From a virus (Duplodnaviria; Heunggongvirae; Uroviricota; Caudoviricetes), in IMG/VR virus record IMGVR_UViG_2531839433_000004: a DNA stretch of 23,310 nucleotides; one strand, 5' to 3'. This document shows, piece after piece, positions 8,782 to 23,310 of the stretch. Position 1 is the first letter of the stretch, and each line of letters begins with the position of its first letter. Position numbers and translations under genes: made by a program. The notes under the pieces were generated by a model. The model was given only the letters and a program-made list of their open reading frames with translations. It was not told where the DNA came from and ran no database searches.

Positions 8782-9711
8782 ATGGCAAACACTGCTGAGA
8801 TATTCAATTTTCCTGTGCCGGATGTGGCACAAAAGGAGCCGCGCGTGGCAGATCTCGATGATGGTTATACGCGCATTGCAAATGAGTTGCTGGAAGCTGT
8901 GATGCTGGCCGGATTAACACAGCACCAGCTTCTGGTCTTCCTGGCTGTCATGCGCAAAACATATGGCTTTAATAAAAAACTGGATTGGGTGAGCAACGAG
9001 CAACTTTCCGAGTTGACCGGGATATTGCCGCACAAGTGTTCTGCTGCAAAAAGTGTTCTGGTAAAGCGTGGGATTTTTATTCAGAGCGGGCGGAATATCG
9101 GCATTAATAATGTGATCAGTGAATGGTCAACATTACCCGAATCAGGTAAGAAAAATAAAGTTTACCTGAAAGAGGTAAATTTACCTGAATCAGGTAAGAA
9201 AAGTTTACCCAAATCAGGTAAAGGCGTTTACCCGAATCAGGTAAACACAAAAGACAAACTAACAAAAGACAATATAAAACCTTTTTCGTCCGAGAATTCT
9301 GGCGAATCCTCTGACCAGCCAGAAAACGATCTTCCTGTGGTGAAACCGGATGCTGCAATTCAGAGCGGCAGCAAGTGGGGGACAGCAGAAGACCTGACCG
9401 CCGCAGAGTGGATGTTTGACATGGTGAAGACCATCGCGCCATCAGCCAGAAAACCGAATTTTGCAGGGTGGGCTAACGATATCCGCCTGATGCGTGAACG
9501 TGACGGACGTAACCACCGCGACATGTGCGTGCTGTTCCGCTGGGCATGCCAGGACAACTTCTGGTCCGGTAACGTGCTAAGTCCGGCCAAACTCCGCGAC
9601 AAGTGGACCCAACTCGAAATCAACCGTAACAAGCAACAGGCTGGCGTGACAGCCGGAAAATCAAAACTCGACCTGACAAACACTGACTGGATTTATGGGG
9701 TGGATTTATGA
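8782..9711 (+). CDS. O: Replication initiator O-like protein with the origin iterons inside its coding sequence
   Basis: MANTAEIFNFPVPDVAQKEPRVADLDDGYTRIANELLEAV...RKTYGFNK...ISEW parallels the lambda O N-terminus. GGAGGA RBS before the ATG at 8782. The ORF overlaps the P start. Confidence 0.8.
   Translation: MANTAEIFNFPVPDVAQKEPRVADLDDGYTRIANELLEAVMLAGLTQHQLLVFLAVMRKTYGFNKKLDWVSNEQLSELTGILPHKCSAAKSVLVKRGIFIQSGRNIGINNVISEWSTLPESGKKNKVYLKEVNLPESGKKSLPKSGKGVYPNQVNTKDKLTKDNIKPFSSENSGESSDQPENDLPVVKPDAAIQSGSKWGTAEDLTAAEWMFDMVKTIAPSARKPNFAGWANDIRLMRERDGRNHRDMCVLFRWACQDNFWSGNVLSPAKLRDKWTQLEINRNKQQAGVTAGKSKLDLTNTDWIYGVDL
9134..9246. repeat. Replication origin iterons: five direct repeats of ~18-20 bp, followed by an A/T-rich segment (9247..9290)
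   Basis: TTACCCGAATCAGGTAAG; TTTACCTGAAAGAGGTAAA; TTACCTGAATCAGGTAAG; TTTACCCAAATCAGGTAAAG; TTTACCCGAATCAGGTAAAC. Each has internal dyad symmetry (TTACC...GGTAA), as in lambda ori. Confidence 0.7.
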
Positions 9712-10394
9712 AAAACATCGCTGCACAGATGATTAACTTTGACCGTGAGCAGATGCGTCGAATCGCCAACAACATGCCGGAACAATACGACGAAAAGCCG
9801 CAGGTGCAGCAGGTGGCGCAGATCATCAACGGTGTGTTCAGCCAGTTACTGGCAACTTTCCCGGCGAGCCTGGCTAACCGCAACCAGAATGAGCTGAACG
9901 AAATCCGCCGTCAGTGGGTTATGGCTTTCCGTGAAAATGGAATTACCACTATGGAGCAGGTTAACGCCGGAATGCGCGTGGCCCGCCGACAGGAGCGACC
10001 ATTCCTGCCGTCGCCCGGCCAGTTCGTAGCGTGGTGTAAGCAGAGTGGCGGGGCGTTAGGTATCACTGTTGACCAAGTCATAACCGAATACTGGGATTGG
10101 CGTAATCGTTCCTTCGAATTCACTTCCAGCGAGCATTTCCCGTGGTCACAGCCTGTCATGTACCACATCTGCGTCGAACTGCGCCACCGTAGCATTGAGC
10201 GCCAGTTAACGCATGGCGAGCTGGCATGCGAGGCTGGTGACCTGCTGGACATGTGGGAGAAGCGCGTCAGTGAGGGCAAACCAATCCCTCCGGTCAGAAA
10301 ACAAATCTCGGCTCCGCGCCACGTGCCCGGGCCGACTCCCGCTCAGCTTTTGCTTGAGCAATACAAAGCGCGTAAAGCAGTCGGATTTATTTAA
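9708..10394 (+). CDS. P: Replication protein P-like helicase loader (lambda-like N-terminus, divergent C-terminus)
   Basis: The first ~110 aa (MKNIAAQMINFDREQMRRIANNMPEQYDEKPQVQQVAQIINGVFSQLLATFPASLANR...) are near-identical to lambda P as recalled. The remainder diverges. Confidence 0.85.
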   Translation: MKNIAAQMINFDREQMRRIANNMPEQYDEKPQVQQVAQIINGVFSQLLATFPASLANRNQNELNEIRRQWVMAFRENGITTMEQVNAGMRVARRQERPFLPSPGQFVAWCKQSGGALGITVDQVITEYWDWRNRSFEFTSSEHFPWSQPVMYHICVELRHRSIERQLTHGELACEAGDLLDMWEKRVSEGKPIPPVRKQISAPRHVPGPTPAQLLLEQYKARKAVGFI

Positions 10395-10396
10395 CC

Positions 10397-10981
10397 ATGA
10401 ACAAGAAATACACGTTGATCTAAGCGGATCCGCCCTGGACGTACGAGGATAAATGCAATTCTGGTAAGCGTGGCACCGGGCATAAATACTTGGTTATGAC
10501 GGTGCAGGATATCTGCTGGCTGCCAGTAAGGGAGCGGGTTGCAGAAAGCTGCCAGCTGGCGATGTGGTGGTTGCCAACTCAAACGTTCGAGGCGATGAAA
10601 GTCGTCGATGCCTGGGGATTTCGCCTGATCACAATGAAAGGTTTCACTTGGGATAAAACCTACCCGAAGCAAACTGACAAATCGGCGATGGGAATGGGAC
10701 ACCTGATCCGGGCGAACCGTGAAGATTGTCTTTTCGCGGTAAAGGGTAAGCGGGCACCACAGCAGGACGCCTCGATCATCCAGCACTACACCTCGCCGCG
10801 ACATGAGCACTCACGTAAACCAGACTGCGTGCGTGAAATGCTGGTTCGGTTGCTGGGTAATCTTCCACGTATTGAGCTCTTTGCGCGTAAATCCTCCCAC
10901 GGTTTCGACGTATGGGGAAACAAGTGTGATTCGCCAACCGTATCATTAAGCCCGGCCCGAGTTACTGATGTTTATTCTTAA
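10397..10981 (+). pseudogene. MT-A70-family DNA N6-adenine methyltransferase interrupted by an in-frame TAA at codon 9
   Basis: ATG AAC AAG AAA TAC ACG TTG ATC TAA GCG GAT CCG CCC TGG reads MNKKYTLI*ADPPW. The catalytic DPPW motif follows the stop in frame. The downstream frame continues ...AWGF...RANREDCLFAVKGKR...SPRHEHSRKPDCVREMLVRLLGNLPRIELFARKSSHGFDVWGNK. Confidence 0.7.
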
Positions 10982-11192
10982 AAGAATTAACTGAAAAGAG
11001 GAAGGTTTGATGAGTTTTTTTACGTGAATTAACACGTAAGACTGCTGGTTATTAAACCATCACATTAGATATCTAAAAATTGTGATCGGTATCTCCCTAC
11101 TATAAAAAAAAGTAGTTGAATATACGGTCTATACTTGAAATAAATAAAAGTATTCTTATTTTTTAGATTCTGTGTTGTGAAAAGGAATTTTT

Positions 11193-12224
11193 ATGTCCTC
11201 GAATATTTTATCTGGTGAAAAAGTAATCAATAAAATTGCTGAAAAGTTGAGCGATTATAAATATCCTCCGGCTGAAGGTATGAACTCTGAACATGTCAGC
11301 AAATGGATTAAGCAATTTGCAGTGGAGGATAGACGATTTATCTTAGATGAAACGCTTTATCTACTTAATGCAGGTTACCTATCCGAAAGTCAATATCAAC
11401 GAAAAATAAAAGCCATTGCAAGAAGTGAAAAGAACGCGAAATTCTTCAGATATGCAGGTTTTTTAGATATTCAAAAAAAAGGTTCTAGTCAGAAGGAATT
11501 GCTTAAATCTCTTTATGAAACAGTAGGGATCAAATTTAACATCGTTACTGAATCATCAACTCAAGATGAAGTAAATAAATTTGATACATTTGTATATATT
11601 GATGATGTGTCGTTTTCAGGAGAAAAGGCCATCAAATCGATAAGTAATTTTGTTTTAAAATTTAATTTAAGAGATATTAAATTCAATGTATATTTTTTTT
11701 CATCTCATACGTTATCTGACTATAATATAAAAAGACGATTAGAATATATTTTTAAGGATAGAAACATTTTTGTACACGTGAAGAATGGTGGTATGCGTGA
11801 GGTTGAAAACCGAAAAAGTCGTTCTGCTCAATCAGGTGTTTTCTGGCCAAGGAAATATAGTGTAGATACTCCCGAGAAATTCGAGGAGTGTGAGCTTTAC
11901 AAAGGCGTATTCAGAGATGGATATGCCTCTTCTGATAGTTTTAGAAATGAAGCCTCAAGGGATCGTTTCGAATCTATCCTTACTAAAGTCGGCTTTAATA
12001 TCTTGCTGCACAGGAAAACCCCTAGTGAGGTGCTCAAACCTCTAGGTTTTTCTACTTTTGACGGTTTGGGTTTTGGGGGAACAACATTTACTTATCGAAA
12101 TTGCCCGAATAATGTGCCGCTGGCTTTTTGGTGGGGAGATTATGAACCAACAGGTGCTCCCGCATTGGACTGCTGGTATCCACTAATGAAGCGGAATGGG
12201 TATAATGAGTGGTATGAGCTATAG
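11193..12224 (+). CDS. Unrecognised 343-aa protein with a PRTase-like motif, in a low-GC insertion
   Basis: Long ORF in a distinctly A/T-rich block. RBS AAAAGGAA before the ATG. FVYIDDVSFSGEK (aa 133-145) resembles the PRPP-binding loop of type I phosphoribosyltransferases. Rest of the protein not recognised. Confidence 0.6.
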   Translation: MSSNILSGEKVINKIAEKLSDYKYPPAEGMNSEHVSKWIKQFAVEDRRFILDETLYLLNAGYLSESQYQRKIKAIARSEKNAKFFRYAGFLDIQKKGSSQKELLKSLYETVGIKFNIVTESSTQDEVNKFDTFVYIDDVSFSGEKAIKSISNFVLKFNLRDIKFNVYFFSSHTLSDYNIKRRLEYIFKDRNIFVHVKNGGMREVENRKSRSAQSGVFWPRKYSVDTPEKFEECELYKGVFRDGYASSDSFRNEASRDRFESILTKVGFNILLHRKTPSEVLKPLGFSTFDGLGFGGTTFTYRNCPNNVPLAFWWGDYEPTGAPALDCWYPLMKRNGYNEWYEL

Positions 12225-12825
12225 ATTATATCCGCTACAGAACACAGTTTCCTTCAGGAAAACCACCGAAAAATGGGGGGGGCTTTCCAACATGGCTAAA
12301 GGATATCCATTGTTAATCAATGGGTTGCCTATTCAATCAAGTGAAATCCTTTACCAAGCATGCCGATATCCAGACTATCCGGATATACAAAAGGCCATCA
12401 TTACTCAAGGAAACCCCTATGAAGCCAAGCAGACCGCAAGATCGTTTGAATCCAAAACTCGCGCAGGATGGGATAAGAATCGAGTTTCGATTATGAAGTG
12501 GTGTGTATGCGTAAAATTATGCCAGAACTGGGATACGTTCTTTGCGCTGTTAGACAGTACAGGCGACCATTTCATCGTGGAACACTCAGAGAAGGACCAA
12601 TTCTGGGGTGCCAGTAAAGACCCAGAAGGTAACTATTATGGTATGAACGTATTAGGGCGAATTCTCATGGACGTGAGAGGGGTTGCTAGGAAAAAGGGGG
12701 CTGATGGGTTTGCAACAATACCATCGCTATCTTTGGACAAATTTTTTCTCCTAGGCGAAAGAATTAAAGATGTAACATTTGTAGAGCCAACGCCTGGAGC
12801 AGGGCAAAGTTTATCCTTGTTTTAG
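12196..12825 (+). CDS. NADAR-domain protein (YbiA-like N-glycosidase / ADP-ribosyl-base hydrolase family)
   Basis: Recognisable NADAR pattern WGGLSNM, SSEILYQACRY, KTRAGWDKNRVSIMKWCVCVKLCQN, LLDSTGDHFIVEHSEKDQFWGAS, GMNVLGRILMDVR. Overlaps the upstream gene end; start could be the ATG at 12196, 12205 or 12214. Confidence 0.7.
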   Translation: MGIMSGMSYRLYPLQNTVSFRKTTEKWGGLSNMAKGYPLLINGLPIQSSEILYQACRYPDYPDIQKAIITQGNPYEAKQTARSFESKTRAGWDKNRVSIMKWCVCVKLCQNWDTFFALLDSTGDHFIVEHSEKDQFWGASKDPEGNYYGMNVLGRILMDVRGVARKKGADGFATIPSLSLDKFFLLGERIKDVTFVEPTPGAGQSLSLF

Positions 12826-12935
12826 CGTTCCATCTGGGGCATTTTCTTCCATAAATTAACTGGCGTACCTCCCTCGGCGTTTTTTTGTTGCCATAAAAGG
12901 TTTTTGATTTTCTATAATCAACCAGCCATAATCAT

Positions 12936-12964
12936 GTCACCGGAGCCTGAACAACTCCGGTGAC
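12936..12964 (+). terminator. Perfect 10-bp-stem hairpin upstream of the nin genes (possible tR2-like terminator or RNA element)
   Basis: GTCACCGGAG-cctgaacaa-CTCCGGTGAC. The downstream tract is only weakly T-rich. Confidence 0.3.
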
Positions 12965-13085
12965 TTCTGCGCTAAACGGGGACGTTTATGCGCACATACA
13001 ATCTAAACTCTCTTCTCCCGCCACAGATGCAGAAATGCACCTGCGATTTTTTGCATCCAGCGTTTGACCTCTGCGGAGGTGAAGC

Positions 13086-13541
13086 GTGAACCTCCCACAA
13101 GACGGCATCAAACTTCATCGCGGTAACTTCACCGCTATCGGTCAGCAGCTCCAGCCTTATCTGGAGGACGGCAAGTGCTTCCGCATGGTACTGAAGCCAT
13201 GGCGCGATAAGCGCAGCCTGTCTCAAAATAGCTTAAGCCACATGTGGTACACCGAAATCAGCGAATACCTCATCAGCCGGGGTAAGACTTTCGCTACGCC
13301 AGAGTGGGTGAAGGATGCTCTGAAACACACTTATCTCGGTTATGAAACCAAAGAACTGGTTGATGTCGTAACCGGTGATATCACCACTATCCAGTCGTTA
13401 CGCCATACCTCCGATCTTGATACCGGAGAGATGTATGTCTTCCTGTGTAAGGTTGAAGCCTGGGCGATGAATATTGGTTGCCACCTGACTATTCCGCAGC
13501 GCTGCGAGTTCCAGCTGCTGCGCGACAAGCAGGAGGCGTAA
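13086..13541 (+). CDS. ninB: NinB-family (YbcN-like) recombination protein
   Basis: 151-aa ORF with a probable GTG start preceded by GGAGG. The RSLSQN... segment resembles the lambda NinB RSLDQN region. Position matches the nin region after the replication genes. Confidence 0.5.
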
Positions 13542-13711
13542 TGGCTACACCGCTTATTCGTGTCATGAACGGACACATCTACAAAGTACCAAATCGTCGT
13601 AAGCGTAAACCTGAGCTGAAGCCATCCGAAATACCAACTCTGCTCGGATATACCGCCAGCCTGGTTGATAAAAAATGGTTGCGACTGGCAGCAAGGAGGA
13701 ATCATGGCTGA
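13541..13711 (+). CDS. ninE: NinE-like small basic protein
   Basis: 56-aa [56 protein letters not shown]. The basic motif and spacing resemble NinE. ATG overlaps the ninB stop. Confidence 0.45.
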
Positions 13712-14297
13712 TTTGAGAAAAGCAGCGCGTGGTCGGGAATGCCAGGTAAGAATCCCTGGCGTATGTAATGGCAATTCTGAAACGTCTGTACTGGCACATA
13801 TCCGGCTGACCCCACAAACAGATTTCACGCTCAATCTCACGACGAGTCATGAGACCTTTCCATTGCTTACCGCCAGCATATGTCCAGCGACGTAGCTGAT
13901 CACATGCGCCTTTGATATCGCCCTGGTTTATTTTGCGAAGAAGCGTCGATGTTCTGAAATTGCCAGCGCCCACGTTGTAAACGAACGAGTAAAGAGCGCC
14001 GCGCGTTGTTTCCGGTATATCAACTTTTATGTACGGGTTAATTTGTCTGGCGACCGTGGCAAGGTCTTTATTCAGGAGGGCTTTGCATTCTGCTTTGGTA
14101 TACGTTTTACCGAGCATGATGTCTTTTCCTGTATGCCCGTGACATACAGTCCATACACCAACAATATCTTTGTATGGTATGTAGCTGACACCTTCCAGAC
14201 CATCGTTACCACTTGGGCCAGTGATTAACACTGATGCTATAGCAATTGCTCCGCCACCAATAGCAGCAGCAACGGCTTTTCGTAATGATGGAGGCAT
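13563..14297 (-). CDS. R: SAR endolysin (phage 21 R / RrrD-like GH24 lysozyme); the ORF has lost its native stop and runs ~80 codons into antisense nin sequence
   Basis: The first 164 aa [44 protein letters not shown]...CLWGQ match R21/RrrD-type SAR lysozymes (recalled). Sequence after Q164 (13806..13808) is unrelated. Start overlaps the holin stop (ATGA). Confidence 0.85.
13704..13808 (+). pseudogene. ybcO-like nin-region gene truncated after ~35 codons at a rearrangement junction
   Basis: [35 protein letters not shown] matches the YbcO/DUF1364-type N-terminus (recalled). Downstream translation is antisense to the lysozyme gene. Confidence 0.45.
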
Positions 14298-14512
14298 TAT
14301 TCACCTCTCGCAGCCTTGCGCTTATCTTCTTTAATCTTGAAATAAAGGTTTGTCAGGTACGTCAGCAGGCCAAATACCAGGCTACCCAGCACACCTATTG
14401 CTGCCCACTGTGAGGGCGTGACTTTATCGAGCAGCTGTAAAAACCAGTAACCGGCACTACCTGCTGAGGTGCCATAGGCGACACCCGTTGTTAACTTATC
14501 CATGGATTTCAT
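14297..14512 (-). CDS. S: Class II pinholin (S21/EssD-like)
   Basis: [71 protein letters not shown] has two TMDs and a basic C-terminus; near-identical in pattern to S21. Dual-start MKSMDK motif present. The ORF extends upstream to 14557. Confidence 0.8.
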
Positions 14513-15099
14513 AACCCCACCTCGCAGACAAAGCGGGTGTAAATTGAGGGAATACAACGTATCGCAAAAAAGCAGAAACGTAACAGACTCGGAGTCAGTG
14601 AATAACTCAGGTATTGAGTTATCAGCTAATATCGAGACTCAGAAAATGGAAAAACCAGCTCGACGGCGGGTTTAAGCTGTGTGACGAAGTAACCACTCTT
14701 AACAGCATAACCAATTTTTTACGTACGTAAACCACTGAATGATATTTATGAGAATGCTACCGAGTGTTCAAAACACCACCACAAATACATAAGAAAACCT
14801 CAACAAATAACCAATAAATAATTTCAGACGTTATTTTTAGTTGATTTAAATTAAACTGCCGAATTATAGAACCTCCATAAATAACAACCATTAATATAAA
14901 TTAGCTAATAGGTTTATTTTTGTTCAAATAAGAGCCATAAATAGGTTTCGATAGAAAAAGTTCAGATAAAAATAGAGATCTACTTCACAAATTAAATGAG
15001 AAACTAAAACTTACATCTTGAAATAATCACATTGATTAGATGAATATTTATCGCGCAGTGACATCATTTTTTAATAATAGTTCAAAAAAAGGGCTCACG

Positions 15100-16182
15100 A
15101 TGAAAAAATTAACAGTGGCAATTTCTGCTGTAGCTGCATCAGTACTGATGGCGATGTCTGCTCAGGCAGCTGAAATTTATAATAAAGACAGTAACAAGCT
15201 GGATCTATATGGGAAAGTTAATGCCAAGCACTACTTCTCCTCTAATGATGCAGATGATGGTGATACTACTTATGCCCGTCTTGGCTTCAAAGGTGAAACC
15301 CAAATCAACGATCAACTGACTGGTTTCGGTCAGTGGGAATATGAATTCAAAGGCAACCGCGCTGAATCTCAAGGCTCCTCCAAAGACAAAACCCGTCTTG
15401 CATTTGCAGGCCTGAAATTCGGGGACTACGGCTCAATCGATTACGGCCGTAACTACGGTGTAGCATATGACATCGGTGCGTGGACTGACGTTCTGCCAGA
15501 ATTCGGTGGCGATACCTGGACCCAAACAGATGTGTTCATGACTGGTCGCACCACTGGTGTTGCAACTTATCGTAACAACGACTTCTTTGGTCTGGTTGAT
15601 GGTCTGAACTTTGCTGCTCAGTATCAGGGTAAAAATGACCGCACTGACGTAACTGAAGCTAATGGTGATGGTTTCGGTTTCTCCACTACTTATGAGTATG
15701 AAGGATTCGGTGTAGGTGCAACCTATGCTAAATCTGACCGCACTAATAATCAGGTTATCTACGGTAACAACAGCCTGAATGCATCTGGTCAAAATGCTGA
15801 AGTATGGGCAGCTGGTCTGAAATATGATGCGAACAACATCTATCTGGCTACCACCTATTCTGAAACCCAGAACATGACTGTTTTTGGTAATAACCATATT
15901 GCCAACAAAGCACAAAACTTCGAAGTAGTTGCACAATATCAGTTCGACTTCGGTCTGCGTCCGTCCGTTGCTTACCTGCAATCTAAAGGAAAAGACTTGG
16001 GTGCGTGGGGTGATCAGGACCTGGTTGAATATATTGATGTAGGTGCAACCTATTACTTCAACAAAAATATGTCCACTTTTGTTGATTACAAAATCAACCT
16101 GATTGATAAGAGCGATTTCACGAAAGCATCTGGCGTTGCTACCGATGATATCGTTGCTGTAGGTATGGTTTACCAGTTCTAA
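15100..16182 (+). CDS. Outer-membrane general porin of the OmpC/OmpF/NmpC(Lc) family, prophage-encoded
   Basis: Signal peptide [30 protein letters not shown]. Beta-barrel porin hallmarks and C-terminal ...VGMVYQF. AAGGG RBS. The ORF track starts 60 nt upstream, but MKKL is the likely start. Confidence 0.85.
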
Positions 16183-16308
16183 TTTGATTACTAAAAGATA
16201 TGTTGCGGGAGGCTTTGCCTCCCCAACATATAAGTGGCTCCCTCAAGCCACTTCCTTTAGGAGCACAACCTTGCTTCTAACTATATAAACCTTCTGTTAT
16301 ATATTACC

Positions 16309-16340
16309 CTTTATTTTTGGGGGCGTTGCAACGCCCCATT
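16309..16340 (+). terminator. Intrinsic terminator downstream of the porin gene
   Basis: GGGGGCGTTGCAACGCCCC hairpin followed by ATTTTTAATAATTTTT. Confidence 0.55.
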
Positions 16341-16370
16341 TTTAATAATTTTTAGTAAACAATTGGCATA

Positions 16371-16754
16371 TTAATTAGAGTTATTAACAACGATATCCAT
16401 CTCTAACCGGATATCTAATGCCATTAACATCCCTTCAATTATGCCCTCAGCCTTCTGTAACCTTTTCCCGATATAACCATCAGAGCAGCAATGCTTACCT
16501 GCCAGTGACATGAATGTCATACCGACTACATAATAATCTACTAATAAATCGTGCAAATCGCTGCTGTTCTTTTTCAGACGGGCCATGCACCCGCAAATAA
16601 TCATCGCGTCATCGTCACAACATTGCGGGCGAGATTTTACTTTTGAAGTAATTAATCCCTTAAAACCGGCGGCAATGGACGACCAGGTCACATCTTCATG
16701 ATTATTAGCCGCCCACGCTCCCCAACGCTCAAGAACCATCTGAATATCACGCAT
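16371..16754 (-). CDS. Q: Late-gene antiterminator Q (phage 82/QuuD type)
   Basis: [62 protein letters not shown]... matches the DLP12 QuuD-type Q as recalled. Cys-rich zinc-binding segment present. Confidence 0.8.
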
Positions 16755-16820
16755 CAACTTACTCCACAAAAATCAGACCAGAACGCCAATTACAAGCAAA
16801 AATCAACAAAACAGTATTAG

Positions 16821-17480
16821 TTGATTGTTATCTCTGACTTCATACTCCTGCTCCTGTCAGGGTTTTGGCGTAATTCTTCAGTATTCGGTAATCGGTCAAA
16901 ACAGAACCGGGGAAACGATATAAGCGCAGATGCCCCCAGCGGTGGCGAAGAAGTTCTGCCATATAAAACTCAAACATCATTCATTCCCCATTTCGGTGAT
17001 GGTCAGTTCCAGCCTCCCACCTTTGGTATTGCACCGCCAGATATTCCGGTAGGCTTCGTGGCTGTTTTCAACAGTGATGAGGCATCGTGGCATCTCGTTG
17101 AAGATCATCGGGGAAAAACCGTCTATGACGTGGCTTCCGGCGACTCGTTATTTATTTCTGAACTCGGACCTCTACCGGAAAATATCACCTGGTTATGCCC
17201 GGAAGGGGAGTTTCAGAAGTGGAACGGCACAGCCTGGGTGAAGGATACGGAAGCAGAAAAACTGTTCCGGATCCGGGAGGCGGAAGAAACAAAAAACAGC
17301 CTGATGCAGGTAGCCAGTGAGCATATTGAGCCGCTTCAGGATGCTGCAGATCTGGAAATCGCAACGGAGGAAGAAACCTCGTTGCTTGAAGCCTGGAAGA
17401 AGTATCGGGTGTTGCTGAATCGTGTTGATACATCAACTGCACCTGATATTGAGTGGCCCGCAATCCCTGTTATGGAATAA
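16821..17480 (+). pseudogene. Tail fibre assembly (Tfa) protein homologue, probably a 5'-altered remnant with no ATG start
   Basis: C-terminal ~150 aa ...[52 protein letters not shown]...[11 protein letters not shown] match the lambdoid Tfa family. The N-terminal 60 aa are unrelated and the frame opens with TTG. Confidence 0.6.
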
Positions 17481-17840
17481 TAGTTTTGTGATATGCCGCA
17501 GAAACGTTATATGCAATAACGTGCTGCGGTTGGCTGATGTACTTTCGAGAGTGTATTGAATAATTTCCAACCGTCATTAATTTTATTTATTTTTTGTATG
17601 AGAGGATTTGAACCTCCGAGCCTCGACACCTTATGACAACGCGATATTGCCTTGATGACCGCCATGTGCCAAAATAACCAATTGATAAATAAGTTGATTT
17701 TAATTGGTTGGAAGCAAGTCAGGTCAAATTCAGCATTCCGCTCTCTGTATCGGATAGTTAAATTTTTCTATAACTGATAGTAATATGTTAAAACTCACAC
17801 AGATAAATTATCATTGCTCAACAAGTATAATGGAGTTCCC

Positions 17841-19796
17841 GTGGATACAGCAGAACATGATGGCAAGTTTGCTTGGGCTAGTTTTTATGAGGCTTTTGCC
17901 AACGCGTTACTGACTTGGCGAAATCGTAGAGATGAATTAGTCAAAGGTATTCATCTAATTGCCTCGGGTGTGGAAGGAATGTCCCATCTGCAGGACAAAT
18001 CTATTATGGGAGAGATCTTTCCCTTAAAAGACATTTGTCCGTTTACTACTATGGGCTTGTTCAATCGTAACTTGACCGACAGCAATCGCAAAATTATTGC
18101 TGCCAAGCTAGCGAATTTGTTGGGCGTGAACGAACCGATTCCTGACTCCTTTGCCGGAATCCCTCTGTTGAATAACCAAAAATCTTGGTTCTTTGGTTAT
18201 GAAAAGTCACGCGACCCTAATGACATTGAATGCTTGTGGGAAATGTTCTCACAGGCAATGACCTTTGCGGATAACCAGAATACTAACTCTGCAGACTTCA
18301 CTGCCGCATATGACATCGCTTCTACAGTAATGAATGTCGGTTGGAATCTCACCATGGGGTTGTACTGGACCCGTCCTTGGTTCTACCCCACTTTAGATAG
18401 CCAGTCGCAGTATTACATTCAGACAGTGTTAAACATTAAGATCATTAAAAACGGGGCAAAAGGTCGCTGTAGTGGACAAAGTTACCTGAGTCTTATGCGG
18501 GCGCTGAACGAGGTCTTTACCCAACCAAACTATCCGGTTCATTCTTTCCCAGAACTTTCCTTATCAGCGTGGAATACAGATCTTAGCCAGTCTAAAGATG
18601 AGGTGGCAAATAGAACGTGGAAAGCCTCTTTACTGAATAAAATTAAGGCGTTATGCCTGAAAAAAAATGGCCCTTATTTCACTGCTTCGGAGTTGGAAGA
18701 AAACTACTTGGACGTTTTCAAGGTAGAGCATCCTGAGAGCAAAACTGTTACAAGCTCAATCTACTTTTATCTACAGAAACTATGCAATGATGATGAGTTA
18801 AAGTCCCTCGAGTCCGGAAATTATGAATACCTGAATTTTGAGAAAAACGAATCCCAGACGATAACTGAGGAAACTGTCGAAGAGAGTGCGCTGTCGCCAA
18901 AACTCACCCACGTTCCTTATGATATCAGTCATCTGGTGCAGGATGGCTGTTTCTTGGAAGAGGCTAAGATCCAACTCACACTTCAGCGCCTGATCGACAA
19001 GAAAAACCTGATATTACAAGGACCACCCGGAACTGGAAAAACTTGGTTAGCGCGACGTCTGGCGTACTGCTTGATGGGAGAAAAAGCACCTGAGCGTATT
19101 AGCGCGGTGCAATTTCACCCGAACCTCTCTTACGAAGACTTTATTCGCGGCTGGCGTCCAGGTAAAGAAGGGCAATTGACGCTAATTGATGGACCTTTTG
19201 TAAATGCAATCAAAACTGCAGTCAATAATCCTACCTCGAAATATGTGGTGATAATTGAAGAGATTAATCGTGGCAATCCGGCGCAAATCTTCGGTGAAAC
19301 ACTCACGTTGATGGAAGCAGATAAACGCACGCCGACTGAGGCATTATCTCTTTCCTATCCTAAAAATGCTGATGAAAAAATATACATTCCTGAGAATCTA
19401 TATATCATCGGTACGATGAATATTGCAGACCGCTCACTCGCACTACTTGACCTAGCGCTGCGCCGTCGTTTCGCGTTTATCGATCTAAAGCCAGCTTTTA
19501 ATGACGCGTGGAGAAACTGGGTAAATTATAATTACGCAATTGATTTTGACATGTTAGCATTCATCAAATCTCGACTGACGGTATTAAACGATATGCTGGC
19601 AAAAGATGTTACCTTAGGACCACAGTTTTGTATCGGTCACAGCTATGTCACCCCAGCTATCGGCCAAAAAATCAACGATGCCCAGGCTTGGTATGAACAA
19701 GTCGTTGATACAGAGATCTGCCCTTTGCTCGCCGAATATTGGTTCGATGCTCCAAATAAAGTCGATGAAGCCAGAAAAGTGTTATTAGCAAAATGA
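17841..19796 (+). CDS. mcrB: McrB-like AAA+ GTPase with a ~390-aa unrecognised N-terminal domain
   Basis: C-terminal half carries Walker A LILQGPPGTGKTW, VVIIEEINRGNPAQIFGE, and IIGTMNIADRSLALLDLALRRRFAFIDL, as in E. coli McrB. GTG start at 17841 with GGAG 5 nt upstream; the ORF track opens at a TTG at 17814. Confidence 0.85.
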   Translation: MDTAEHDGKFAWASFYEAFANALLTWRNRRDELVKGIHLIASGVEGMSHLQDKSIMGEIFPLKDICPFTTMGLFNRNLTDSNRKIIAAKLANLLGVNEPIPDSFAGIPLLNNQKSWFFGYEKSRDPNDIECLWEMFSQAMTFADNQNTNSADFTAAYDIASTVMNVGWNLTMGLYWTRPWFYPTLDSQSQYYIQTVLNIKIIKNGAKGRCSGQSYLSLMRALNEVFTQPNYPVHSFPELSLSAWNTDLSQSKDEVANRTWKASLLNKIKALCLKKNGPYFTASELEENYLDVFKVEHPESKTVTSSIYFYLQKLCNDDELKSLESGNYEYLNFEKNESQTITEETVEESALSPKLTHVPYDISHLVQDGCFLEEAKIQLTLQRLIDKKNLILQGPPGTGKTWLARRLAYCLMGEKAPERISAVQFHPNLSYEDFIRGWRPGKEGQLTLIDGPFVNAIKTAVNNPTSKYVVIIEEINRGNPAQIFGETLTLMEADKRTPTEALSLSYPKNADEKIYIPENLYIIGTMNIADRSLALLDLALRRRFAFIDLKPAFNDAWRNWVNYNYAIDFDMLAFIKSRLTVLNDMLAKDVTLGPQFCIGHSYVTPAIGQKINDAQAWYEQVVDTEICPLLAEYWFDAPNKVDEARKVLLAK

Positions 19797-20914
19797 CGAC
19801 AATAACCGGGAGTGAGCAACATACAGCATCACGTATTCCCATGCGAAATATCTGGATGCTGATGCTGTACGCTTCAGATCTGTTTCGCCAGTTAGGGCGC
19901 AATCAGATCGCAGTAGAAGATAACCCAGCAGAAATCCCCGACCTGGTGGCGACAATCCTCCTTCATGAGATTACGCTGCGCCGACGTCGCAATTTAAATA
20001 TGGGATACCAAACTTGTCATGCGGCCCTGAACCGGGTGAGAGGGCGCATTGACATACTGTATACTGCCAGTCATCAACTGCTGGAACGGGGACAGGTTGC
20101 CTGCCATTTTCAAGACATAACCCTCAACACCCCCCGAAATCGCTATGTTCGCTGTGCGTTAGAACGTCTGGCCTCAATCATAGTGAAACCGTCTTTGGCG
20201 GCAGATTGCCATTTTATGGCAATATCACTTCGCCGTGAGGGGATAAATGGAGGATATCCTGCCCCCCACGAATTACCCTCAGTGTGGCGTTTTGGACGCC
20301 ATGATGCCGCAGATAAACCGATGGTCGATGCCGCACGATTAGCTTTTGAACTGCTGATGCCGACCGAAGATCAAGGCCAATATCTTTTACCTGCGCCCTC
20401 AAATAACCTTTACTGGATGAGAAGACTATTTGAAAAAGGTATCGCTGGCTTATATCGTGTACACCTTGACAAAACAACTTGGCAGGTCTCTGCAGGGAAA
20501 GAGCTGAAATGGGCGTTGAGCGATCAAAGTGCAGGTAGTGCAGAGATTTTCCCGACAATGAAGTCAGACATTATTCTGGAACACAAGACTGCCCAGCGGC
20601 GTATTATTATCGATACCAAATTTAATTCGATTCTGACAAAGGGTTGGCATCGGGAGCAATCACTACGTAATGGCTATATTTATCAGCTATATACCTACCT
20701 TAGAACACAGGAGAACAAGACGGATCCGCTTTCGCTCAATGCCGCTGGTCTTCTACTTCATCCAGCTGTTGGCTATATGCTTAATGAGTATGTTGTCACT
20801 CAGGGACATAAGATCCATTTTGCTACAGTAGATATGACGGTAGATGCTAAAGCAATTAAAAAACAATTGCTGGCAATAGCCCATGATTGTGCAGGAGTCG
20901 CGGTTGATGACTAA
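19793..20914 (+). CDS. mcrC: McrC-like PD-(D/E)xK nuclease subunit
   Basis: Start overlaps the mcrB-like stop (ATGA, translational coupling). The segment RRIIIDTKFNSIL...YIYQLYTYL is consistent with the McrC nuclease core. Confidence 0.8.
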   Translation: MTTITGSEQHTASRIPMRNIWMLMLYASDLFRQLGRNQIAVEDNPAEIPDLVATILLHEITLRRRRNLNMGYQTCHAALNRVRGRIDILYTASHQLLERGQVACHFQDITLNTPRNRYVRCALERLASIIVKPSLAADCHFMAISLRREGINGGYPAPHELPSVWRFGRHDAADKPMVDAARLAFELLMPTEDQGQYLLPAPSNNLYWMRRLFEKGIAGLYRVHLDKTTWQVSAGKELKWALSDQSAGSAEIFPTMKSDIILEHKTAQRRIIIDTKFNSILTKGWHREQSLRNGYIYQLYTYLRTQENKTDPLSLNAAGLLLHPAVGYMLNEYVVTQGHKIHFATVDMTVDAKAIKKQLLAIAHDCAGVAVDD

Positions 20915-21614
20915 CCATCCTATAGGGCACTGGCTGTAATATAATCAATAGTTTCAATTAAGTAGCTGTTATCCGTGCTTAGTCATCATATGACGCACCA
21001 CGGTCTAATTTTCCTGCTCATACATTGATATATCCTTGTCGTGCCCGGAAAGTCGCAGTCCACTATGAGGTATACCGATTGCCAGCACCAAAAGCTTCTT
21101 TGTGATTATTATATCGGGGAATGCCTATTTTTTTAGTGACAATATCAGATAGCAATTAATAAGCGGTGCCGGTAATGGATGTTATGTTTAATGTATAGAC
21201 ACAGCCATCATAAACTAAACGTCTGTTGTTCGCTCATAACCGACATTTATCTCAGTTATGGAGGATAATTATGTATGCAGATAATGGGGCAGACAGTCGT
21301 GGAGTAAACAAGGTTTTGCACTGCTTGGCGGCATCGTTATCTTATTTTTAATTATGTGCCTCTTAACATAAGTTGGGACAAAACAGAGACACATAAGGTC
21401 TCACAAAGGTCTGCAAGGCCTCACATGTATTGAGATGTTAATAAAATGTAGACTTGTAATTTGGATATAAATGGTAGAGAAAACCTTTCCCCAAAATAAA
21501 AACGAACGTCAATGAAATCAAACGGTTGAATAAAGTTAATTTTGGCTAATAAAAAGACAATAAAATAATTTTTATCATTAAATATCAATGACTTGAATTC
21601 ATGGTTTTTATATA

Positions 21615-21779
21615 CTGCTGCGCCATATGGGTTGGACTGAAGCGGCTGACCTGATTGTTAAAGGTATGGAAGGCGCAATCAATGCCAAGACCGTAACTTA
21701 TGACTTCGAACGTCTGATGGAAGGCGCTAAGCTGCTGAAATGTTCAGAGTTTGGTGAAGCGATCATCGAAAACATGTAA
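21615..21779 (+). pseudogene. icdC: 165-bp 3' fragment of icd (isocitrate dehydrogenase), icdC-like, marking the prophage/host junction
   Basis: Translates to [54 protein letters not shown], the ICD C-terminus. Upstream sequence lacks icd homology. Confidence 0.85.
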
Positions 21780-21802
21780 TCTCTCCATGTGTTAAATATT
21801 GA

Positions 21803-21834
21803 AACGGGCGTATAACACGCCCGTTGTTTTATTT
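21803..21834 (+). terminator. icd intrinsic terminator
   Basis: AACGGGCGT-ataac-ACGCCCGTT followed by GTTTTATTT. Confidence 0.6.
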
Positions 21835-21881
21835 ATGTGGATATTATTAATAGCATATCGAGCATATTTATATGAAGCCCA

Positions 21882-22205
21882 TTACTTGAGCCCATATGGG
21901 CATATTTTTATAATGCAACTATTATGTAAACATTTATTTGTTATTTTGCTTTCTCCTGGAGGACACTCTTGACTGCTTTTGAGTAAACTCCATAAATCCT
22001 TGTTGAATGGTGCGATGTGATAAATAGTAATAGGATATTCTTTATCCTTAAGGATAATACCAGACTTAACCGGTGTAAATATACTGCCAGGAGGGAGAAA
22101 TATAGTAGATTGATACCAGATGATCATTTTCATATTACCCCATATGGCTGAAAAAGATATACCACATGTAGGTTGAATTACCGTGTCAATTACTATCCAC
22201 TTCAT
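21882..22205 (-). CDS. iraM: Anti-adaptor protein IraM (RssB inhibitor)
   Basis: 107-aa [41 protein letters not shown]... matches E. coli IraM/YcgW as recalled. A/T-rich gene. Confidence 0.75.
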
Positions 22206-22645
22206 TTGTTATGTCTTATCCCACGGTATTTAATATGGTTCATTAGGATGTTTATTTCTTGATTTTGCATATGAGTATATTACCCCCCCCCTCAAAAAAA
22301 TAAATTAATTAAAATGATGGCTTATATAAAATAAAATTTAAAGCAAGGAATCTCAATGGATGTTAAACAAAATGAGATTTTGTGAAAGCAATAAATTATT
22401 GACTTCGTTTTAGATTTGTTTAGCTATAATGTTATACATTCAAATGACTGAACATCCTGTAATTAAAACATAGCCTTTATGCTACTTTGTGCCAATTTGC
22501 TAAACATTATGGTTGCCTTTTTATATAACGATAATAATGAATATAAGCATGACATGAGAATAAGGTTTCAATTTTTGAGTTATATAGGAATGATTTAACC
22601 TGTTCCTGGCTAAAATACATATAACCGGATGATGACTAAACCAAA

Positions 22646-22700
22646 ATACATGTGCGTTAAGTATTGAAACGGACGTGTGGCACGGCCGTTGTTTTTATAA
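22646..22700 (+). terminator. Degenerate second copy of the icd 3' end and terminator hairpin
   Basis: CATGTGCGTTAAGTATTGAAACGGACGTGTGGCACGGCCGTTGTTTTTAT aligns with CATGTGTTAAATATTGAAACGGGCGTATAACACGCCCGTTGTTTTAT at 21786..21832. Confidence 0.45.
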
Positions 22701-22905
22701 ATATGTTAACCGTTATAAAATAACGTATCAAAAGTCAAGTGATCACATTTCAAATATCAAGTTGATAGTATTAGTCTGGTGATTATTTATGGGTGACAAT
22801 AAAAAGACAGTATTAATCATCCATAGAGATAGTCTCTGCACTTTTATTTCCATTATGCTAATGCCTTACTGAATTATGAAGCATTTCTTAAGTATCCAAC
22901 TTTAG

Positions 22906-23310
22906 CTAGATTAATGGTTTATTATTTTCTACATCTTCAATATATAAAAGCGTATTATCAATGGCGTAGTAACTGCGTTTGTTATGATTAACATCAGTAA
23001 CCCACCGGAAAACGCCCGCGCCTGCCAGTGTTGAACAGTATTCCCGAAATGTAGATTTTCCGCAAATATGAAGCAATGCGGCCTCTTTTATTTTAGCAGG
23101 GTTCTTGGTCGTACTAACTTTTAACAGGTTCCTGGTTCCTCTTAATAACAAAACCGTATCATCGTGAGTAATAATTCTGATGTTATCCGTAGCCAGATAA
23201 TAAATGTAATGTGCAATACGGTGATGTTTTAATTCTGAATAAAACCAGGAGAAGTTTTGCTCTTTTCTCACTTGCTCAAACATCTTTTGAAAAACAACGA
23301 CCTGATCCAT
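22906..23310 (-). CDS. ycgX: YcgX (DUF1398-family) host protein
   Basis: 134-aa MDQVVVFQKMFEQVRKEQNFSWFYSELKHHRIAHYIYYLATDNIRI... matches E. coli YcgX as recalled. Start codon sits at the window edge. Confidence 0.75.
   Translation of the reverse strand: MDQVVVFQKMFEQVRKEQNFSWFYSELKHHRIAHYIYYLATDNIRIITHDDTVLLLRGTRNLLKVSTTKNPAKIKEAALLHICGKSTFREYCSTLAGAGVFRWVTDVNHNKRSYYAIDNTLLYIEDVENNKPLI

Follow-up and report, generated by a model that had tools for sequence, protein, structure and literature searches.

A reversed late-gene block between two microhomology joints in an icd-site prophage of enterotoxigenic Escherichia coli lineage L6

The stretch of DNA analysed here (the window) comprises the 23,310 nucleotides of IMG/VR virus record IMGVR_UViG_2531839433_000004 and is a lambdoid prophage of enterotoxigenic Escherichia coli (ETEC) lineage L6, inserted at the 3' end of icd, the e14 site. 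Between two junctions, named J1 and J2, a block of 3224 bp holding rusA', ylcG, quuD, a porin gene, essD and rrrD' lies reversed, and DNA has been lost on both of its sides. The arrangement is very probably the structural scar of illegitimate recombination at the level of microhomology, which would have occurred in situ in the icd prophage. The first-pass annotation of this DNA had noticed an inversion/deletion junction where the nin region meets the lysis genes; the observation is correct to the codon and its reading as an inversion with deletion is supported. Gene annotation is based on the Prokaryotic Genome Annotation Pipeline (PGAP) record of E. coli strain 504239 (NZ_CP025859.1), the chromosome of which matches the whole window by BLAST at 99.996% identity with one 1-bp gap.

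Junction J1 was mapped with three-way alignments of the window, full-length ybcO and the reverse complement of rrrD/rzpD from E94 and 730V1. The window tracks ybcO through ...ATATCCGGCTG and then reverse-complemented rrrD from GCTGACCCCACAAAC..., the four bases GCTG being common to both parents and the BLAST segments overlapping by exactly those four bases; the sequence spanning the junction is CATATCCGGCTGACCCCACAAACAG. The ybcO frame opens with an ATG at 13704, and translation places codon 35 at the CTG of 13806-13808. Through 13808 the DNA is 100% identical to the full-length 96-codon ybcO of E94, FREC5 and 2018-10-2CC and diverges thereafter, which bears out the claim that the match to the ybcO family ends at this codon. 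Moreover, only positions 2-41 of 92 of the Pfam profile for YbcO, a putative nuclease (PF07102), are matched, short of a full-length domain, and the open reading frame (ORF) started by ybcO runs through 28 junk codons past codon 35 to a stop at 13893-13895. From the other side, the rrrD/essD matches from thousands of E. coli genomes and phage records all begin at window position 13805. The break on the rrrD strand falls after CAG in CAG CAA TGA, with the loss of Q165 and the stop only, and that stop overlaps the start of rzpD. A microhomology of at least 4 bp is expected at about 1.6% of random joins (P 0.016).

The mapping against un-rearranged relatives that had been proposed fixed J1 at the base level and disclosed an additional junction, J2, which is newly found and lies outside the region singled out in the first-pass annotation. 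The inverted homology passes ylcG, takes in a further 52 bp from the 3' end of rusA and ends at window position 17028 (E94 17403). There this rusA remnant, in reverse complement, meets codon 45 of tfa, a tail-fibre-assembly gene, for which matches begin at 17027. Window 17027-23310 corresponds, at 99.9% identity, to the stretch of 730V1 that begins at nucleotide 132 of its 585-bp tfa and covers the McrB-like gene, McrC, icd' and iraM. The bases TA (17027-17028) are common to both parents, the BLAST segments overlapping by 2 bases, and the sequence spanning the junction is CCACCTTTGGTATTGCACCGCC.

Insertion at icd is seen from icd, an int split by an IS3-family element and xis at the left of the window and from an icd' pseudogene (21612-21779) beside iraM at the far end, icd' and the icd duplicate being 93% identical. 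The attachment site is thus icd and not the DLP12 site, and only the nin/late module is DLP12- or phage-21-like. The prophages of FREC5 and E94 occupy the same icd site and have the same int/xis as the window. The ybcN-ninE-ybcO DNA of FREC5, E94/E92 and 2018-10-2CC is 100% identical to window 12900-13808, with ybcO full-length, and in FREC5 and E94 the genes ybcO-rusA-ylcG-quuD-porin (opposite strand)-essD-rrrD-Rz are collinear with the early operon; past Rz, FREC5 holds a complete terminase, head and tail gene set. Window 8155-13808 aligns forward to FREC5 13852-19505, while window 13805-17028 aligns reversed to FREC5 19999-23223 at 99.9% (2 mismatches and 1 gap in 3225 bp). The loss on the left is exactly the 493 bp of FREC5 19506-19998, from ybcO codon 36 to about nucleotide 310 of rusA, and on the right everything between rrrD codon 164 and tfa codon 45 is missing, with it Rz/Rz1 and whatever packaging, head and tail genes were there. 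These alignments show an ancestral order that would have read ybcN-ninE-ybcO-rusA-ylcG-quuD-(porin, opposite strand)-essD-rrrD-Rz/Rz1-...-tfa-McrBC-like genes-icd', and a present state in which tfa codon 45 and ybcO codon 35 enclose, in reverse orientation, the part from about nucleotide 311 of rusA to codon 164/165 of rrrD. On the right, at least 4.3 kb would have been lost: 4316 bp if the ancestor already resembled the head/tail-deleted 730V1, and at least 20 kb if it resembled FREC5.

The annotated strands agree with the earlier claim that the late segment is inverted relative to the early region, cro, O, P, ybcN and ninE lying on the plus strand and quuD, essD and rrrD' on the minus strand. 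The accompanying claim that Rz/Rz1, terminase, head and tail genes are absent holds for Rz/Rz1, terminase, head and tail-shaft genes, but a tail remnant exists in the form of the 5'-truncated tfa'. No Rz/Rz1 spanin gene is annotated in the window, which has no match to the DNA of E94 or FREC5 past rrrD codon 165.

The block appears to have been inverted in place and not imported, because its 100% identical flank and the 99.9% identical block itself are contiguous and collinear in FREC5 and E94 at the same icd site. It might be supposed that a DLP12-like Q-porin-holin-lysozyme block came from another prophage or phage and was inserted backwards into a deleted icd prophage, as lambdoid prophages are mosaics (the immunity region of the window is like that of 2018-10-2CC, its nin/late part like FREC5 and E94 and its right end like 730V1) and DLP12-type late modules are found in thousands of E. 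coli genomes. Such an import is very unlikely, given that typical DLP12 copies of the block are only about 98.4% identical and that the module is single-copy in the six genomes that carry the rearrangement, hence without an internal donor; both facts argue for an origin in situ. Moreover, import would still require both illegitimate joins plus a separate deletion.

The 1.7-kb and 12-kb junction regions are complete at 100% identity in only 6 of 5426 complete E. coli genomes, namely 504239, 67-1, TW11681, WS1933D, S1-NGR-02-A and LR883000, which come from India, Nigeria and elsewhere (host-source details were checked for some of these six strains); LR883000, labelled L6_E562_ETEC, is the ETEC lineage 6 reference. 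The exact 244-aa chimeric protein encoded across J1 was found on 111 contigs and in 218 index blocks (NCBI, ENA, Logan and gut metagenome assemblies), and all examined J1 contigs that reach far enough also carry J2. None of 50,697 deposited phage genomes spans J1, and a literature search (TW11681 with prophage; DLP12 with rrrD and essD) returned no relevant earlier description. In RefSeq/PGAP, ybcO' and rrrD' are flagged as 'incomplete; partial in the middle of a contig'. One gut-metagenome contig, ERZ27246485 k141_71652 (1-2764), has J1 and J2 but diverges past window position 17536, with methyltransferase, second tfa fragment and DUF892 genes where the window has McrBC; either tfa has been rearranged again there, or the metagenome assembly is chimeric.

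An assembly artefact was considered and rejected, J1 being present at 100% identity in six independently finished genomes of separate accession series and strain origins, in addition to the 111 contigs, with flanks 99.9-100% identical to the collinear parents. Gene callers do report the 244-aa ORF as 'lysozyme', which would suit a lysozyme that is naturally long and a ybcO that naturally ends at codon 35. However, most of the listed cluster-mates of the 244-aa protein have 165 aa, the others listed having 100-168 aa, the solved RrrD and phage 21 R end at residue 165, and the relatives with identical DNA over the first 35 codons of ybcO have 96 codons. The probability that either artefact or natural gene ends account for J1 is therefore negligible.

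The lysozyme ORF is a chimera, as had been proposed, and the proposed match of the signal-anchor-release (SAR) endolysin to its family through residue 164, followed by some 80 codons of antisense nin sequence, was found to be 164 plus 80 residues, the extension being exactly the antisense of ybcO'/ninE. Residues 1-164 match RrrD (PDB 4ZPU) and phage 21 R (3HDE), the sole difference from 4ZPU being I159V. The lysozyme domain PF00959 is complete (profile 3-125 of 125, residues 34-156, E=3.7e-45). Residues E35, D44 and T50, which we take to be the Glu-Asp-Thr catalytic triad of the endolysin, are present. The N-terminal SAR segment, weakly hydrophobic and rich in Gly and Ala, is likewise retained, the top hydropathy windows beginning at residues 7-11 (mean Kyte-Doolittle (KD) value 2.1) and the sequence being identical to that of the solved proteins. 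The predicted chimera keeps both the SAR segment and the catalytic domain, while its native 165-aa C-terminus is gone, Q165 and the stop being replaced by the 80-aa extension. This tail is basic, contains four cysteines and has no transmembrane-like segment (maximum KD19 0.96). A single-sequence AlphaFold model of the 244-aa chimera had a mean predicted local distance difference test score (pLDDT) of 36, low even across the known lysozyme fold. At the other junction, the ORFs called 'tail fiber assembly protein' (16920-17480 or 16821-17480, with 186 or 219 aa depending on the caller) are chimeras as well, in which genuine tfa begins at 17027; the first ~36 codons of the chimeric tfa ORF come from the antisense strand of ylcG/rusA and happen to be in frame with it.

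The Q gene of lambdoid phages is read by transcription that starts at the early rightward promoter and crosses the nin region, and Q then activates the late promoter just downstream of its gene. In the window, Q is not in a position to be read by early rightward transcription, quuD being on the minus strand and cro, O, P and nin on the plus strand. The genes for Q, holin and endolysin are all on the minus strand, keep their ancestral relative order and encode complete domains; the essD protein (WP_000839596.1) has the identical accession in un-inverted relatives, and the porin accession WP_000737275.1 is common to the window, E94, FREC5 and 730V1. Q, the downstream late-promoter region, holin and endolysin would thus remain mutually collinear but face the early operon, and derepression would no longer deliver Q by early rightward transcription. 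Early transcripts would instead run antisense into the tailed rrrD and essD and in the sense direction into the porin gene, which as a result of the inversion is now co-oriented with the early rightward operon.

YbcO and RusA would have been destroyed by the rearrangement, and the spanins and all virion genes appear to be gone. No virions are possible with an integrase gene interrupted by IS3 and the morphogenesis genes missing. The prophage is probably cryptic, with a lysis function uncoupled from induction. It is presumably non-inducible; nevertheless the S24-type repressor and the early operons look intact and transcriptional derepression may still occur. The S-R-Rz/Rz1 genes of DLP12 in K-12 are a domesticated module reported to modulate vesiculation (PMC7918800), and by analogy it is conceivable that the block has retained a host function. 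Selection cannot be assessed, since all copies are virtually identical. One could go further and suggest that a single event was retained in the globally spread ETEC L6 lineage since it disarms SOS-triggered lysis, with Q, pinholin, a still active tailed RrrD and porin forming a host-controlled envelope or vesiculation module of the kind proposed for DLP12 in K-12, but we regard this reading as improbable.

As to the way in which the rearrangement arose, GCTG at J1 and TA at J2, with neither filler bases nor long homology, make up the signature of microhomology joining. Joints with 2-12 bp of microhomology are reported as typical of RecBCD/LigA-dependent alternative end-joining in E. coli (Chayot et al. 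2010, summarised in PMC11297215), and template switching is likewise said to leave such joints. A programmed segment inverted by a Pin/Gin-type serine invertase, or an inversion/deletion made by an insertion sequence (IS), is extremely improbable. J2 does lie against a tail-fibre-assembly gene, where Pin/Gin switches are usually found, and a degraded 'recombinase family' gene sits beside the McrBC-like genes of E94 and TD225-C4. However, no recombinase gene is annotated near the block, the interval between tfa and the McrB-like gene included, a repeat search gave no inverted or direct repeats of at least 14 nt at 13805 or 17028, and the block occurs with these junctions in a single orientation only. 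Moreover, the breakpoints fall within the coding sequences of ybcO, rrrD, rusA and tfa and DNA was lost, unlike in conservative site-specific inversion. The one IS in the prophage is an IS3 copy 12 kb away, inside int; no IS ends were found at J1 or J2, which join phage coding sequences directly.

We slightly favour a single flip-and-join event, in which breaks in the ybcO/rusA area and between rrrD and tfa would have been followed by resection and by rejoining of the middle piece backwards, or, in a variant, a replisome would have switched template twice. Alternatively, and with not quite an even chance, a reciprocal inversion with its ends at ybcO codon 35/36 and rrrD codon 164/165 would have come first, and a deletion from reverse-complemented rusA to tfa would then have removed the reciprocal junction. 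Mechanically, both histories fit the junctions to the same degree. The single event is preferred because it needs two joins against three and because no intermediate has been seen. The reciprocal junction (reverse-complemented ybcO from codon 36 onward with rrrD codon 165/rzpD; ACAATCCAGCCAGCAATGAACAG) is present in 0 of 5426 complete E. coli genomes and gave no match in GTDB species genomes or JGI metagenome contigs; the metagenome negative carries no weight, because J1, the positive control, is absent from that set as well.

Some points weigh against this reconstruction. No database genome combines the nin/late alleles of the window with its tfa allele; the exact ancestor is therefore only approximated by these relatives, and the right-hand loss may have been 4.3 kb or more than 20 kb. 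At J2, a microhomology of 2 bp could well be due to chance (P ~0.16 for at least 2 bp). One event and two cannot be told apart from the present-day sequence, and the missing intermediate is weak evidence since the carrier genomes are nearly identical across the region; the intermediate could simply be extinct. The suggested transcriptional consequences rest on gene orientation only, and a promoter/terminator consensus scan of 12800-17900 gave counts at or below the shuffled expectation.

Table 1. Features of the prophage in and around the reversed block (window coordinates)
Feature	Position	Strand	Remarks
Left end			icd, integrase split by IS3-family element, xis, Red/gam/kil leftward operon (PGAP)
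IS3-family element	~453-1761		within int (fragments 1-453, 1761-2456); programmed-frameshift transposase
Early region after leftward operon			S24-type repressor, cro, YdaT-like gene, O, P (PGAP)
After P			MT-A70 pseudogene, PRTase-like/NADAR pair, ybcN, ninE, ybcO stump (PGAP)
ybcN	13086..13541	+	intact; left flank of rearrangement; 100% identical to E94, FREC5, 2018-10-2CC
ninE	13541..13711	+	intact; PF05322; antisense overlap by tail of chimeric lysozyme ORF
ybcO stump	13704..13808	+	codons 1-35 of 96; PGAP: partial, C-terminus missing
Junction J1	13805..13808		4-bp microhomology GCTG, ybcO (+) and reverse complement of rrrD 3' end
Past ybcO stump			opposite-strand rrrD stump and essD, plus-strand porin gene, minus-strand quuD and ylcG (PGAP)
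Chimeric 244-codon ORF	13563..14297	-	RrrD 1-164 plus 80 codons from antisense ybcO'/ninE
rrrD' SAR endolysin	13806..14297	-	codons 1-164 of 165; without Q165 and stop; PGAP: partial, C-terminus missing
essD phage-21-type holin	14297..14512	-	intact; PF04971 positions 1-63 of 64
ompC/nmpC-like porin gene	15100..16182	+	intact; between Q and holin; inside inverted block
quuD late antiterminator Q	16371..16754	-	intact; PF06530 positions 1-118 of 118; points away from early rightward operon
ylcG	16840..16980	-	intact; inside inverted block
rusA remnant	16977..17028	-	last 52 bp only; alignment to reverse complement of E94 and 730V1 rusA-ylcG
Junction J2	17027..17028		2-bp microhomology TA, reverse complement of rusA and tfa
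tfa' tail-fibre-assembly gene	17027..17480	+	from codon 45 of 194
Right part		+	tail-fibre-assembly gene, McrB-like/McrC genes; then duplicated icd' and chromosomal iraM (PGAP)

Elsewhere in the prophage (Table 1), the int flanks around IS3 overlap by 4 bp when compared with the intact int of E94 and FREC5, which fits a target-site duplication. The MT-A70 methyltransferase gene (window 10397-10981) has an in-frame stop at codon 9, directly before the DPPW motif, and this 'internal stop' is annotated in all relatives examined, the apparently intact FREC5 prophage included; it is either an old shared lesion or a sign that the true gene start lies downstream (TTG at 10490). A pair of genes encoding PRTase-CE (PF24390) and NADAR proteins (window 11193-12825) lies between the replication genes and ybcN, is kept in all relatives and may be cargo that the nin region carries for accessory defence or counter-defence. 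Restriction-type cargo lies at 17841-20914, just before icd'; it encodes McrC and a McrB-like AAA_5 ATPase of 651 aa whose N-terminal region is DUF8425. The icd-site sister prophage of TD225-C4 shows a different deletion, with NADAR joined straight to an acyltransferase gene (12826-13337 of the TD225-C4 sequence), and in that of E94 the terminase is joined to lom (22884-23677 of the E94 sequence). To judge from such structures, this family of icd-site prophages decays repeatedly and independently.

The rearrangement explains two 'partial' RefSeq pseudogenes and the chimeric ORFs called 'lysozyme' and 'tail fiber assembly protein'. The pair of J1 and J2 could mark ETEC lineage L6. The region is moreover a base-resolved natural case in E. 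coli of an inverted fragment with microhomology joints and loss on both sides, of modest use for studies of illegitimate recombination, and it illustrates one way for prophage lysis genes to become uncoupled from induction. As a case of prophage decay by illegitimate recombination it is ordinary, was already implied by the pseudogene flags in RefSeq, and constitutes no new system or mechanism.

Among known elements, the icd prophage of FREC5 (NZ_CP180702.1), of which E94, 730V1 and TD225-C4 hold decayed versions, shares with the window the attachment site, int/xis, the Red region, the replication genes, the MT-A70 pseudogene and the PRTase-NADAR pair. The late block is collinear in FREC5 and followed by Rz/Rz1, terminase, head and tail genes, whereas in the window it is inverted and trimmed on both sides; the immunity region and some genes of the pL operon also differ. 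DLP12 of E. coli K-12 and B (ybcN ninE ybcO rusA ylcG quuD nmpC essD rrrD rzpD/rzoD) has the gene set and order of the window's ancestral state, and the rrrD-essD part of the window is 99.9% identical to the B/BL21 copies. In DLP12, which is found at argU, the block is collinear and the spanins are kept, whereas the window has a reversed block without spanins, in which rrrD runs into junk sequence and the porin gene is intact. The e14 element of K-12 is, like the window, inserted in the 3' end of icd with a duplicated icd' beside iraM and has a restriction-type gene at its right end, mcrA, in the position of the McrB-like/McrC genes. It is however much smaller and has a Pin-invertible tail-fibre segment, while the window lacks pin and combines an early region of the lambda type with McrBC-like genes. 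With phage 21 R and RrrD (PDB 3HDE, 3HDF and 4ZPU) the chimeric endolysin shares the SAR segment and the GH24 domain, its 80-residue tail being without homologues. Finally, the junctions resemble the products of alternative end-joining in E. coli (PMC11297215) in their microhomology (2-12 bp in that system), in the loss of ends and in having no inserted bases, although the experimental products are mostly deletions or translocations, whereas the window holds a flipped 3.2-kb fragment.

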